DNA of 64,000 nucleotides from a bacterium. GTDB lineage: Bacteria; Patescibacteriota; Dojkabacteria; SC72. Each line of letters begins with the position of its first letter. Position 1 is the first letter of the stretch. Shown here in pieces: positions 11,246 through 42,598 of this stretch. Under the pieces are notes generated by a model, which saw only the letters and a program-made list of their open reading frames with translations, was not told where the DNA came from and did no database searches. The stretch covers positions 169,281 to 233,280 of the forward strand of contig JALHDC010000001.1 in assembly GCA_022840695.1 (NCBI GenBank), given 5' to 3'. A program made the position numbers and the translations under genes.

Positions 11246-11267
11246 TCTTGTGTGAGTATTCTGAGGG

Positions 11268-11276
11268 TGTTATAAT
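11268..11276 (+). promoter_or_regulatory. Candidate extended -10 (tgttataat) for the toxin-antitoxin operon
   Basis: TGnTATAAT, 20 nt upstream of the antitoxin start. It sits in the loop of a weak hairpin (gagtatt..aatactc). Confidence 0.35.
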
Positions 11277-11296
11277 ACTCATATATAAGTTATATA

Positions 11297-11557
11297 TTGA
11301 GTATTATGGCTAAATATTCAAACAGAATACAGGTAAATTTATCCAACAAATTAAGAGATAGGGTATATTCAGAAGCAGAAAGTTTTGGAATATCTGTTCC
11401 AGAATATGTAAGGTATGTGATATTGAAGAATCTAGATAAGGCAGAAAATGATTATCTATTAAGAGATATTAAAAGAGCAGAGACAGAGTACGAGAAAGGT
11501 GAGATTATTAAAACAAATAGTACAGATGAAGCTCTTGATGTGTTGAGAAGTCTTTAG
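11297..11557 (+). CDS. Putative type II antitoxin (86 aa) upstream of a RelE/ParE-family toxin
   Basis: Small gene with 1-nt spacing to the downstream RelE-like gene. The N-terminal region could be a DNA-binding fold. Family not assignable by eye. Confidence 0.45.
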   Translation: MSIMAKYSNRIQVNLSNKLRDRVYSEAESFGISVPEYVRYVILKNLDKAENDYLLRDIKRAETEYEKGEIIKTNSTDEALDVLRSL

Positions 11558-11558
11558 A

Positions 11559-11843
11559 ATGATGGTTAAGATTACCTATTCTAAAACATTTTTAAAGAGA
11601 TATAAGAAATTAAAGAAGGGAAATAAAGAATTAGATAGGAGAATAGAAATATTCATTGAAAAGTTTGTAGAAAATCCTTTTTATTCAGGTTTGGAGACAC
11701 ATAAGATCTTTTTAGATAGTGGGTATGTGTATAGTTCTAGAGTTACAGGGGATATCAGGATATTATGGAGATTTATTAATGATGAAGAAGTATTCTTTCA
11801 GTCAATAGGTGGACATGAGGGAAAGCATTCAGTTTATAGGTGA
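11559..11843 (+). CDS. Type II toxin, RelE/ParE (plasmid stabilisation system) family
   Basis: 94 aa. YSKTFLKRYKKL..NPF..GDIRILWRFINDEEVFFQSIGGHEGKHSVYR resembles the RelE/StbE consensus (...Y.K.F.K....L........G.YRI.Y........I..IGHR...Y). Confidence 0.6.
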   Translation: MMVKITYSKTFLKRYKKLKKGNKELDRRIEIFIEKFVENPFYSGLETHKIFLDSGYVYSSRVTGDIRILWRFINDEEVFFQSIGGHEGKHSVYR

Positions 11844-11850
11844 TTTTTAG

Positions 11851-11856
11851 TATAAT
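11851..11856 (+). promoter_or_regulatory. -10 box TATAAT immediately upstream of the RNase P RNA 5' end
   Basis: tataatatcaa, then the P1 strand cgcaagta. The same 11-mer precedes tRNA-Pro at 42511. Confidence 0.4.
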
Positions 11857-11862
11857 ATCAAT

Positions 11863-12150
11863 GCGCAAGTATTACTAGATGATTGCACTTACTTTTTAAG
11901 TAAGTGAGGAAAGTCCGGACTCCTTAAAAGGGTGCCAACGAGAGTTGGGAGGGAGTGATCTTTCGGAGAAAAGGGCAGCAGAAAGATATACCGCCTAATT
12001 TATTAGGTAAGGGTGAAATGGTAGTGTAAGAGACTACCGGGTATTGTAGTAATACAGTATCGCGAGGTAACCCCCACCTGGAGCAAGGTTAAACCGCATA
12101 GACAGATAATCATCGTTATACAGAATCCGGCTTATTGTGTACTTGCGTAT
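11863..12150 (+). ncRNA. rnpB: RNase P RNA (bacterial type, compact, about 288 nt)
   Basis: Conserved P4 strands GAGGAAAGTCCGG (5' side) and ACAGAATCCGGCTTAT (3' side) are present. The P1 helix is cgcaagta (11864-11871) paired with tacttgcg (12140-12147). Contains GGTAACCCCCACCTGGAGCAAGG-type conserved loops. Confidence 0.8.
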
Positions 12151-12210
12151 TTTCTTTTTATGTTGTGATTTTTCTTAGGTGTTGATATGATTATGCTATA
12201 GGAGATTTAT

Positions 12211-12771
12211 ATGGAAAAAGAATTCAATATATTTGGAAATACAGAATTACATGATAGAGCTATAAGGGAGCTTTATACTGGTAATGATATTGATAAAGTA
12301 CTCCAAGATAAACCTTTTTCTAAGTATATATTCTACGATGTTCTAACTCCTCAGAATGAATTAGTTCCAATTGGTTTAATAGTATCTTGTAGTGGAAAGA
12401 AAGAGGATATGTTGAAAATGGTAGAAGATGATATGGTAGCAAGATTGTTTAATAGTGGTTATGCAGAAGAACTTGGGACGTCAAGAATATATGATACAGT
12501 TAGTAGGTTAGGTAATATTTTATCTGATAGATTTTCTAATGTTGGTAAAACTGTTTTTATTAAGGATATATCTATGAAAGAGGATTGCACTAATGCTAGT
12601 GAAAGAATATCAGGAGGTATTAGAGAATGCATAAATGAGAGTGGTAGTAGTACAGCTATATGTATTACAGATGCAGATAATGATGTAATGGATTTAATAG
12701 AAGATAGAAGGATTAATGTAGAATTAATAGATGAATTAGGAGATTTGAGAGTTTGGGGAATAGAAGCATAA
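12211..12771 (+). CDS. Hypothetical protein (186 aa)
   Basis: ORF with AGGAG RBS 10 nt upstream. No recognisable motif. Confidence 0.4.
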   Translation: MEKEFNIFGNTELHDRAIRELYTGNDIDKVLQDKPFSKYIFYDVLTPQNELVPIGLIVSCSGKKEDMLKMVEDDMVARLFNSGYAEELGTSRIYDTVSRLGNILSDRFSNVGKTVFIKDISMKEDCTNASERISGGIRECINESGSSTAICITDADNDVMDLIEDRRINVELIDELGDLRVWGIEA

Positions 12772-28297: not shown

Positions 28298-28409
28298 TAC
28301 AACTTAGTCGGGACATAATATATGTTACGAATATGTAATGTCAAATAAATAGAAACCTGTAGTAACAGTTCAAAATAGTATAGTAATATGATAAAATCAC
28401 TATTTGTAA

Positions 28410-28484
28410 GCCGCTATCGTCTAACGGTTAGGACACAGGATTCTCAATCCTGCAATCGGGGTTCGATTCCCCGTAGCGGTACCA
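28410..28484 (+). tRNA. tRNA-Glu (anticodon CUC), CCA encoded
   Basis: Cloverleaf read by hand: acceptor gccgcta/tagcggt, D arm tcgtctaacggttaggaca, anticodon stem cagga/tcctg with loop ttCTCaa, T arm ggggttcgattcccc, then ACCA. Confidence 0.85.
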
Positions 28485-41971: not shown

Positions 41972-42515
41972 ATACATTTCAACAGAATGGCTTAAACTAC
42001 ACATGAGAGAAACAGAAGTTATTATGAAAGCCTTAGCAAAACACTTTGGAGAAGATGAAGAATTATGGGGAACATCAGGACTACTTCATGACCTAGACTA
42101 TGACTATGTAGAAAAAGATCCTCAAAGACATGTTGTTGAATTTGACAAAATATTGGAAATGGAAAATTTGAAAATAGGGGAAGATATCCCAGAAGATATG
42201 TATCATGCAATTAAGGCCCATTACGAAGAACATCCTCAAATATCACAAAAGAGAGAATCAAAACTAGACTATTCTCTAAGTGCTGCAGAGAATATTTCTG
42301 GATTTTTAGTAGCATGTGCATTAGTACAACCAGATAAAAAGATATCTAGTGTTGGAGTAGAGAGTGTAATGAAAAAATTCAAGAAAAAAGATTTTGCAAA
42401 AGCAGTAAACAGAAGTTTAATTTATGATATAGAAAAAACAGGTCTTTCCTTGGAAGATTTTATTAAAATATCCTTAGATTCTGTTAATGAAATTAGTAAT
42501 GAAATTGGGTTATAA
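41934..42515 (+). CDS. HD-domain phosphohydrolase
   Basis: H...HD pattern (LHMRETEVIM...SGLLHDLDY...D). Confidence 0.45.
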   Translation: MITREKAQQLLDKYISTEWLKLHMRETEVIMKALAKHFGEDEELWGTSGLLHDLDYDYVEKDPQRHVVEFDKILEMENLKIGEDIPEDMYHAIKAHYEEHPQISQKRESKLDYSLSAAENISGFLVACALVQPDKKISSVGVESVMKKFKKKDFAKAVNRSLIYDIEKTGLSLEDFIKISLDSVNEISNEIGL

Positions 42516-42524
42516 TATCAACCA

Positions 42525-42598
42525 CGGGGTGTAGTTCAGATGGCTAGAACGCTTGCATGGGGTGCAAGAGGTCGCTCGTTCAAGTCGAGTCACCCCGA
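42525..42598 (+). tRNA. tRNA-Pro (anticodon GGG), CCA not encoded
   Basis: Cloverleaf read by hand: acceptor cggggtg/caccccg, D arm gttcagatggctagaac, anticodon stem cttgc/gcaag with loop atGGGgt, T arm gctcgttcaagtcgagt. Preceded by tataatatcaa. Confidence 0.8.

Follow-up and report, generated by a model that had tools for sequence, protein, structure and literature searches.

A reduced bacterial class A RNase P RNA gene in Candidatus Dojkabacteria

Diverged RNase P RNAs have been described in circularised genomes of the Candidate Phyla Radiation (CPR) by Lui, Nielsen & Arkin (2021, PLoS Comput Biol; PMC8172020). According to the passages of that paper drawn on here, 23 of 35 CPR RNAs have no CCA-binding motif, which tends to be absent from cyanobacteria and chloroplasts too; many CPR RNAs lose P13, P14, P16, P17 or even P12, and near-total loss of P15 is singled out only for the Dojkabacteria genome SRX1775579_bin_0, to whose reduced RNase P RNA one sentence and S7 Fig are devoted. 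Here we describe an RNA of this kind, encoded by the RNase P RNA gene (rnpB) at positions 11863-12148 on the + strand of a 64-kb stretch of DNA (64,000 nucleotides, hereafter the window). Judged from its sequence and from that of its relatives, this gene is very probably the functional single-copy rnpB of Candidatus Dojkabacteria (WS6, Patescibacteria/CPR), which would provide the catalytic RNA of the ribonucleoprotein RNase P. RNase P RNA is a universal housekeeping ribozyme, and finding one is routine annotation. The architecture itself is prior art, published in 2021 for one Dojkabacteria genome, and our increment is one of breadth and detail, not of kind. Relative to the same passages of the 2021 paper, what is new is the lineage-wide extent of the reduction, the loss of P18, the covariation of the P15 stub and of the core, a conserved -10 box, the CCA encoded in tRNA-Glu and the absence of a hairpin insert from the subclade of the window; those passages do not mention P18 loss, the breadth within the lineage, the promoter or the question of encoded CCA (PMC8172020). 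No relevant work of a later date came up in a literature search that combined RNase P with Patescibacteria.

The genome SRX1775579_bin_0 is probably the same population as L022 (PHAO01000001.1, HGW-Dojkabacteria-1, 733,750 bp), one of the loci in our alignment A1, which holds 36 complete RNAs from different GTDB species. The L022 RNA could be aligned throughout with the window RNA and shows the same junction of 30-31 nt between J5/15 and P4, without P16, P17 or P18; it differs in being 301 nt long, with a 24-nt covarying hairpin inserted between P5 and P7, whereas the window RNA is 286 nt long and has no insert. The mark of the Dojkabacteria type, a P15 almost entirely absent from what is otherwise a class A RNA, was found in the window RNA, with the junction as in L022 and about 35 other loci, the majority of which bear Dojkabacteria/WS6 titles. 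The missing GGU/UGG motif is shared with other CPR RNAs and with cyanobacterial and plastid RNAs (PMC8172020, in the passages drawn on here), but in contrast to many other CPR RNAs the window RNA has a complete specificity domain (S-domain) and has lost the whole P15-P17 arm. With canonical class A RNAs (RF00010; E. coli M1 RNA, T. maritima) it shares P1-P5, P4 with the conserved regions CR-I and CR-V, P7-P14, the GNRA loops L14 and L9, and J5/15, and it differs from them in lacking the L15 GGU loop, P16, P17, the P6 pseudoknot and P18.

Archaeal type M RNAs (Methanococci, Archaeoglobus) offer a further comparison. The L15 recognition loop, P16 and the P6 pseudoknot are lost in both (PMC4919922), with the same functional consequence, namely no CCA-L15 pairing. 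However, type M RNAs also lack P8, P18 and, in common with other archaeal RNAs, P13/P14, whereas the window RNA keeps P8, P13 and P14; type M RNAs work with at least 4-5 proteins and with tRNAs in which CCA is not encoded, whereas the tRNA-Glu of the window lineage encodes it. Type M is therefore an analogue of which the window RNA is not a member, and only the losses in the catalytic domain (C-domain) are shared.

A search with Rfam 15 (cmscan) matched RF00010 (RNaseP_bact_a) at 11866-12149 of the window on the + strand with 175.5 bits (E = 5.7e-55; gathering score 100 bits), covering model positions 1-367 of 367, and the bacterial class A model was the best match of its clan. Only two Rfam matches in the whole window were above the gathering score, RF00010 and one tRNA. 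Folded as a single sequence, the RNA did better than 200 of 200 shuffles (z = -3.3). An RNase P RNA of about 288 nt had been proposed here by the initial annotation, made from the letters of the window, and the full-length RF00010 match bore this out; the length was measured as 284 nt (Rfam match) or 286 nt (P1 to P1). The same annotation had suggested a covariance-model search and a secondary-structure alignment as checks: the class A model scored well above its gathering score, and in the alignment P1-P4 all form and the missing helices could be identified. The P1 strands it had named, cgcaagta and tacttgcg, were found at 11864-11871 and 12140-12147, and its P4 strands GAGGAAAGTCCGG and ACAGAATCCGGCTTAT at 11906-11918 and 12120-12135, respectively. 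Its description of the RNA as compact was also right, the window RNA being the shortest of the 36 aligned relatives (286-353 nt), followed by that of L043 (288 nt). Pipelines based on open reading frames leave the 370-bp gap that holds rnpB blank, as was the case in 5 of 5 metagenome contigs examined. The elements of the gene are as follows.

11851-11856, + strand: -10 box TATAAT, preceded by TAG, 6 nt before the first base of P1
11863-12148, + strand: RNase P RNA (rnpB), reduced bacterial class A, from the RF00010 match, the mapped structure and covariation
11863-11875, + strand: 5′ strand of P1, pairing with 12137-12148, with one bulged U
11878-11884, + strand: 5′ strand of P2, pairing with 12108-12114; changes on both sides in 5 of 7 pairs
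11886-11906, + strand: P3 hairpin; 6 of 9 pairs covary, 100% paired
11906-11918, + strand: CR-I GAGGAAAGUCCGG, 5′ strand of the P4 pseudoknot, pairing with 12127-12133; its first G is also in P3
11920-11923, + strand: 5′ strand of P5, pairing with 12080-12083; invariant, 100% paired
11924-11929, + strand: J5/7, the 6 nt UUAAAA, without a P6 5′ strand and without an insert hairpin
11930-11964, + strand: 5′ strand of P7, P8 hairpin (GAGA loop) and P9 hairpin (GUGA loop), from the Rfam alignment and covariation
11965-12019, + strand: 5′ strands of P10 and P11, J11/12, a short P12 (8 bp, UUUA loop) and J12/13
12020-12038, + strand: P13 hairpin; 100% paired, one covarying pair
12039-12063, + strand: P14 hairpin with L14 = GUAA; 4 covarying pairs
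12066-12086, + strand: 3′ strands of P11, P10, P7 and P5, and J5/15 (CAA, with the A248 equivalent); GGAGCAAGG invariant
12087-12095, + strand: P15 remnant GGU-UAA-ACC, a 3-bp stem with a 3-nt loop in place of L15, P16, P17 and P6
12096-12107, + strand: junction GCAUAGACAGAU, the J18/2 equivalent; P18 absent
12120-12135, + strand: CR-V ACAGAAUCCGGCUUAU, 3′ strand of P4, from the Rfam alignment and covariation
12150-12159, + strand: U-rich tract TTTTCTTTTT, directly after P1

It is clear from the Rfam alignment that exactly two large deletions separate the window RNA from the class A consensus. One removes 43 model positions inside P15 and spans the L15 internal loop, P16, P17 and the 3′ strand of P6; the other removes 24 model positions at P18, of which 0 nt are left. 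The 5′ strand of P6 is gone too, since J5/7 has only 6 nt. In total the window RNA is about 80-100 nt shorter than canonical class A RNAs. Class B RNase P RNAs carry P10.1 in place of P13/P14, and here P13 and P14 with a GNRA L14 are present, as in class A. Other features typical of class A were not found in the window RNA, neither the P15-L15 GGU loop with P16/P17 and P6 nor the P18 hairpin, whose GNRA loop docks on P8. As read from the aligned sequences, the catalytic-domain core is kept (P1-P5, the P4 pseudoknot, J5/15 and the junction equivalent to J18/2) and the S-domain is complete (P7-P14, the T-loop reader made of J11/12 and J12/13, and the GNRA loops L8, L9 and L14), and what is missing is every peripheral element of the catalytic domain, that is L15/P16/P17, P6 and P18. 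J11/12 and J12/13 were nearly invariant across the alignment; the J12/13 region is the recogniser of the tRNA T-loop. Among the losses that the initial annotation had offered as candidates, P13/P14 or P16/P17, only that of P16/P17 stood, P13 and P14 being present, paired and covarying, and the losses of P18, the L15 loop and the P6 pseudoknot had been missed.

The structure was examined by mapping an explicit class A model (P1-P5, P7-P14, the P4 pseudoknot and the P15 stub) onto A1. Standard pairs were found in 98.2% of 2,938 cells, against 35-46% when the 3′ partners were slid by 1-3 columns, and both sides had changed in 32 of 86 pairs (208 cells); the share of paired cells is inflated by the derivation of the structure from the window sequence and by the kinship of the sequences, which affect the counts of pair types less. 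The observed pairing or covariation score was reached by 0 of 500 shuffles. Between one and six pairs had changed on both sides in each of P1, P2, P3, P7, P8 and P9; in P1, for example, columns 16/373 hold CG in 20 sequences and UA in 16, and columns 18/371 hold UA in 23 and CG in 13. P5, P10 and P11 were invariant or changed on one side only and were 100% paired. Furthermore, RNAalifold, run independently, recovered P1, P3, P4, P5, P8, P9, P13 and P14 together with the same 3-bp P15 stub.

In P4, all seven pairs between CR-I GAGGAAAGUCCGG and CR-V ACAGAAnCCGGCUUA were formed in 36 of 36 sequences; CR-I was identical in all of them, and the helix was invariant within A1. Changes in P4 were seen among the metagenome relatives: L160 and L122 have a compensatory G-C to A-U replacement (5′ CCAG with 3′ CUGG), and in 10 others a G-C pair has become G-U. 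At the third pair of the P15 stub, 28 sequences of A1 have U-A, 6 have C-G and 2 are unpaired. An alternative in which GGUUAAACC is single-stranded, with its GGU free to pair with ACCA, appears less likely, the covariation from U-A to C-G at this third pair favouring the hairpin.

Relatives were collected in two ways. A scan of one genome per GTDB species used the pattern GAGCAAGG-N(15-45)-ACAGAANCCGGCTTA, which describes an abnormally short gap between J5/15 and the 3′ strand of P4 and is able to find short forms only. It gave 52 loci, about 40 of them with the junction of the window, GAGCAAGG-YNNNR-CC-GCAYAGAYAGAT..., and these junction-sharing loci were almost all from Candidatus Dojkabacteria/WS6 or from bins titled 'uncultured Saccharibacteria', with one Microgenomates title and one Thermococci title. 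The 13 matches from outside Dojkabacteria that were put to Rfam yielded a class A match in nine cases and none above threshold in four. Eight of the nine were rejected as reduced RNAs, being of normal size (340-486 nt) and having matched the pattern in another way, and only L018 was reduced. This 291-nt class A RNA (L018:7191-7481, JACPSW010000013.1, 226.5 bits) comes from a groundwater metagenome-assembled genome labelled Rokuibacteriota with 67% GC. It resembles the window RNA in having lost P16/P17 (37 model positions) and P18 (24 positions reduced to 3), independently, and differs in its unrelated lineage and base composition and in keeping a larger P15 loop (AAAUAGGAGA). Since L018 was reduced independently, compact class A RNAs are not confined to the CPR.

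The second scan searched metagenomes with an S-domain signature (P13 and its flanks) that is independent of the P15-P18 region. The signature is not lineage-specific, and most of its 120 matches were high-GC full-length RNAs from other phyla; the matches were therefore ordered by how closely they resemble the window RNA in P4-P7. In each of the 26 window-like matches the signature lies 77-79 nt from the 3′ strand of P4, which is the reduced form, and distances of at least 118 nt were confined to lineages that are clearly dissimilar and in many cases high-GC. Two lower-ranked relatives were short as well (82 nt in L060, 52 nt in L110). No relative keeping P16/P17 or P18 was found among the genome and metagenome collections scanned, so that, as far as their sequences tell, all the relatives recovered (36 species genomes and 26 metagenome contigs) have the reduced form. 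L110 (5968-6187 of contig Ga0076321_117) is window-like, and with 52 nt in place of 77-79 nt between the P13 signature and the 3′ strand of P4 it appears to have lost P14 and the 3′ strands of P10 and P11; the likely explanation is a misassembly or a defective copy.

The gene order rpoA-rplQ-rplM-rpsI-DUF4349-rnpB was found to be conserved, which marks a chromosomal housekeeping locus and not a mobile element. The exact RNA (287 nt) was present in four independent metagenome contigs (L053, L054, L056 and L057), and in L053 the flanks were only 90-93% identical despite the exact RNA. In L043 the RNA region was 92% identical, against 79% for the single further segment that could be aligned, whose counterpart lies in another part of the window.

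An insert of 21-25 nt between P5 and P7 was found in 28 of the 36 RNAs of A1 (columns 78-102; for example L022:1157-1180, + strand). It forms a hairpin of 5-7 bp with strong covariation (12-16 double changes per pair), and its loop ACAU(A) is complementary to the first 4 nt of the insert in 27 of 28 cases (AUGU in 25, GUGU in 2). This complementary 4-nt segment sits at the usual position of the P6 5′ strand, and the insert could be a local substitute for the lost long-range P6 pseudoknot, or else a P5.1-like hairpin; the AUGU/ACAU pairing barely varies among the relatives and hence offers little covariation to judge by. The eight RNAs without the insert are those of the window subclade, comprising the window, L043, L052, L014, L006, L016, L038 and L042. 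Because the subclade lacks this insert as well, the window RNA is the shortest of about 60 relatives. It is conceivable, if rather doubtful, that, of all natural catalytic domains of bacterial class A RNase P RNAs, that of the subclade is the most reduced, being without L15/P16/P17, P18, any form of P6 or a compensating insert, with the S-domain complete and CCA still encoded by tRNA-Glu. If so, it would provide a natural minimal C-domain for structural study, which a specialist would find useful rather than very surprising; and if the RNA were in addition inactive alone and dependent on RnpA or another partner, a bacterial enzyme would have moved independently toward the protein-dependent mode of archaeal type M and eukaryal RNase P.

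To turn to transcription, the hexamer TATAAT was present in 36 of 36 relatives, either 5 nt (30 sequences) or 6 nt (6 sequences) before the first base of P1, and in 22 of the 36 it took the extended form TGnTATAAT. TATAAT is under-represented in the window, with 88 occurrences on both strands against about 145 +/- 13 in dinucleotide-preserving shuffles, a deficit that selection against stray -10 boxes in a 32%-GC genome could explain. The 11-mer TATAATATCAA upstream of rnpB occurs only twice in the window (0.42 expected; 5 of 100 shuffles reach 2), and its other copy, at 42511-42521, lies 3-4 nt before tRNA-Pro(GGG). If the box at 11851-11856 is the -10 element of a sigma-70-type promoter, transcription would be expected to begin at about 11862-11864 and hence on the mature 5′ end or no more than 1-2 nt away from it. 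At the other end, the U-rich tract at 12150-12159 is not conserved in all relatives, roughly half of which are T-rich there, and a terminator scan of 11500-12500 found no hairpin terminator on the + strand after rnpB; the tract might possibly be a 3′-end or termination signal.

In the proposed mechanism, the RNA together with the protein RnpA would cleave the 5′ leaders from pre-tRNAs. Since P15 is a stub with a 3-bp stem and a 3-nt loop, it offers no GGU site to pair with the tRNA 3′-RCCA, and since P18 is absent there is no L18-P8 interdomain brace. With neither the GGU-RCCA pairs nor the brace, recognition must lean on the T-arm, on the contact of J5/15 with N(-1) and on RnpA (PMC4919922). 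The substrate would be recognised through its T-arm by the S-domain, through its acceptor stem and N(-1) by J5/15 and through its leader by the protein, and CCA-L15 pairing would not be used. In this CCA-L15-free recognition alone, the enzyme would resemble the cyanobacterial, chlamydial, archaeal type M or eukaryal enzymes. A lineage without L15, P6 and P18 that still has a full S-domain is a natural test of the dispensability of these catalytic-domain elements in vivo, and also of whether the CCA-L15 contact can be bypassed. This contact has been reported to be essential in E. coli.

The CCA question was approached through the tRNA genes at hand, a very small sample of two tRNA species. In tRNA-Glu(CUC) the 3′-CCA was encoded in 5 of 5 genes (window 28390-28484, L069:10283-10357, L093:2579-2653, L073:1635-1709 and L169:10900-10974), whereas tRNA-Pro(GGG) of the window, at 42525-42598, has no encoded CCA, its discriminator A being followed by CTC. 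No tRNA genes were found in the 39 genome loci of eight kb, and the larger metagenome loci gave only tRNA-Glu, in four of them. A conserved box resembling an extended -10, TGATAAAAT (TGGTAAAAT in L093), was also observed before tRNA-Glu, at a distance from the tRNA start that varies by locus. From the position of the TATAATATCAA copy near tRNA-Pro(GGG), the primary transcript is predicted to carry just about 1-3 nt of 5′ leader, which would be very short for an RNase P substrate.

Some observations weigh against the reading of this locus as an ordinary, self-transcribed rnpB whose product works with RnpA. The -10 box of the window has no recognisable -35 element and no TG extension, and it was not called by a consensus promoter scan of 11500-12500. 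A toxin gene lies immediately upstream, and the terminator scan found no + strand terminator between it and rnpB, so that some read-through from the toxin-antitoxin operon may occur. No rnpA was found in the 64-kb window when open reading frames of at least 70 aa were searched with a regular expression for the RNR motif, and the RnpA partner is assumed. Finally, the simple expectation that L15 loss goes with tRNA genes lacking CCA fails here, because tRNA-Glu encodes CCA in 5 of 5 genes. As to the promoter, the initial annotation had credited rnpB with a TATAAT promoter of its own, a claim that is upheld by the comparison (36 of 36, at a fixed distance) and not by the window by itself; it draws on comparative evidence since the consensus scan called nothing at 11851. 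Were rnpB without its own promoter, its RNA would come from read-through from the toxin-antitoxin promoter (TGTTATAAT, 11268-11276) followed by processing, and TATAAT at 11851 would be incidental. Both the plain form of the window box and the lack of any terminator-like site on the + strand in 11297-11863 would suit such an origin, but the box keeps its distance of 5-6 nt in all 36 species, 29 of which have no toxin-antitoxin genes upstream, it is extended in 22, the hexamer is otherwise depleted in the window, and the same 11-mer precedes tRNA-Pro. We thus consider it unlikely that rnpB has no promoter of its own. Still less credence is due to the view that the internal deletions mark a pseudogene in decay or an artefact of assembly, with a functional RNase P elsewhere or a protein-only enzyme. 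The RNA is indeed unusually short, and two whole structural modules are gone; however, the same two deletions recur in 36 GTDB species genomes and in 26 metagenome contigs from many samples, the compensatory substitutions in the remaining helices speak for selection on structure, and the RNA is exact or better conserved than its flanks. In addition, an independently circularised genome has the same form, with no other copy reported in the passages drawn on here (PMC8172020). A pseudogene or artefact therefore seems extremely improbable.

A further possibility would refine the preferred reading of a functional rnpB rather than replace it: the RNA may be inactive alone and far more dependent on protein, maybe with extra or unusual cofactors, and would then be the bacterial counterpart of the archaeal type M or eukaryal enzymes. 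In favour of this, the RNA has lost each of the three elements (L15/P16/P17, P6 and P18) that serve to stabilise the C-domain or to bind the substrate, and the window subclade also lacks the P5-P7 insert kept by most relatives. The archaeal RNAs that for the most part need protein to be active include those of type M, in which the L15 loop, P16 and P6 are also absent, and L15 binds catalytically relevant metal ions (PMC4919922). Against this, the S-domain, P4, J5/15 and the J18/2 equivalent are intact and nearly invariant, and no candidate for an extra protein was identified. Engineered E. coli RNAs without P18 or P16/17 are still active at high salt, which also counts against a strong dependence on protein. 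On balance, we take such dependence to be a serious possibility, though not the more probable state of the enzyme.

Immediately upstream of rnpB lies the putative toxin-antitoxin cassette.

11297-11557, + strand: putative RelB-like antitoxin gene (ribbon-helix-helix type), 86 aa, from weak matches
11559-11843, + strand: RelE-superfamily (YoeB/YafQ-like) toxin gene, 94 aa, from fold comparison

The toxin stop codon TGA (11841-11843) is 19 nt before P1, in agreement with the placement of rnpB directly downstream of the toxin gene in the initial annotation, which had counted 20 nt. The label 'RelE-type' given there holds at the level of superfamily and fold and fails by sequence, where all matches were below the curated thresholds. 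No Pfam family was matched by the toxin at E < 0.01. Its sub-threshold matches were YafQ (16.2 bits, cut-off 30) and YoeB (15.3 bits, cut-off 27) in Pfam and YoeB (25 bits against a cut-off of 51.8) in NCBIfam, and the sub-threshold matches to YoeB, YafQ and RelE were mutually consistent. A profile of 6 sequences and the protein by itself each gave only one weak match among PDB sequences (E = 0.3-0.7), and a database search for homologues gave three proteins, an identical one being named YafQ by the Joint Genome Institute (JGI). An AlphaFold2 (AF2) model built on a 3-sequence alignment had a mean confidence (pLDDT) of 84.5 and a predicted template-modelling score (pTM) of 0.74, and the top 30 Foldseek matches of this model in the PDB were all YoeB, RelE/RelK or YafQ (template-modelling score 0.64-0.82, E 2.7e-5 to 2.2e-3). 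Judged from this predicted model, the open reading frame is a RelE-type toxin at the superfamily/fold level.

The antitoxin open reading frame had only weak matches, to the RelB family (E about 0.01) and to NikA-like proteins (E = 0.007). Its end is separated from the toxin start by 1 nt, and the two reading frames occur together at five other loci. A homologous antitoxin-toxin pair was found in the gap between DUF4349 and rnpB in the distant relatives L021, L024, L036, L044 and L045, and a toxin 3′ end lies at the edge of L010; the pair was absent from the closest relatives of the window (L043, L052 and L014). The gap between DUF4349 and rnpB is either a recurrent target of insertion or the site of an ancestral cassette that was lost repeatedly. 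The cassette has its own box TGTTATAAT at 11268-11276 and palindromes at 11246-11296, and its inverted repeats GAGTATT...AATACTC...GAGTATT are operator-like in appearance.

Right after rnpB, an open reading frame of 186 aa (12211-12771) without any Pfam or NCBIfam match accompanies rnpB in 5 of 5 contigs with the exact toxin (L053-L057). Beyond it, the window and L056 carry a methyltransferase-like open reading frame of 448 aa and then a HisKA sensor kinase, and L053, L054, L055 and L057 carry an open reading frame of 297 aa, which is followed in L053 and L055 by an Orn/DAP decarboxylase.

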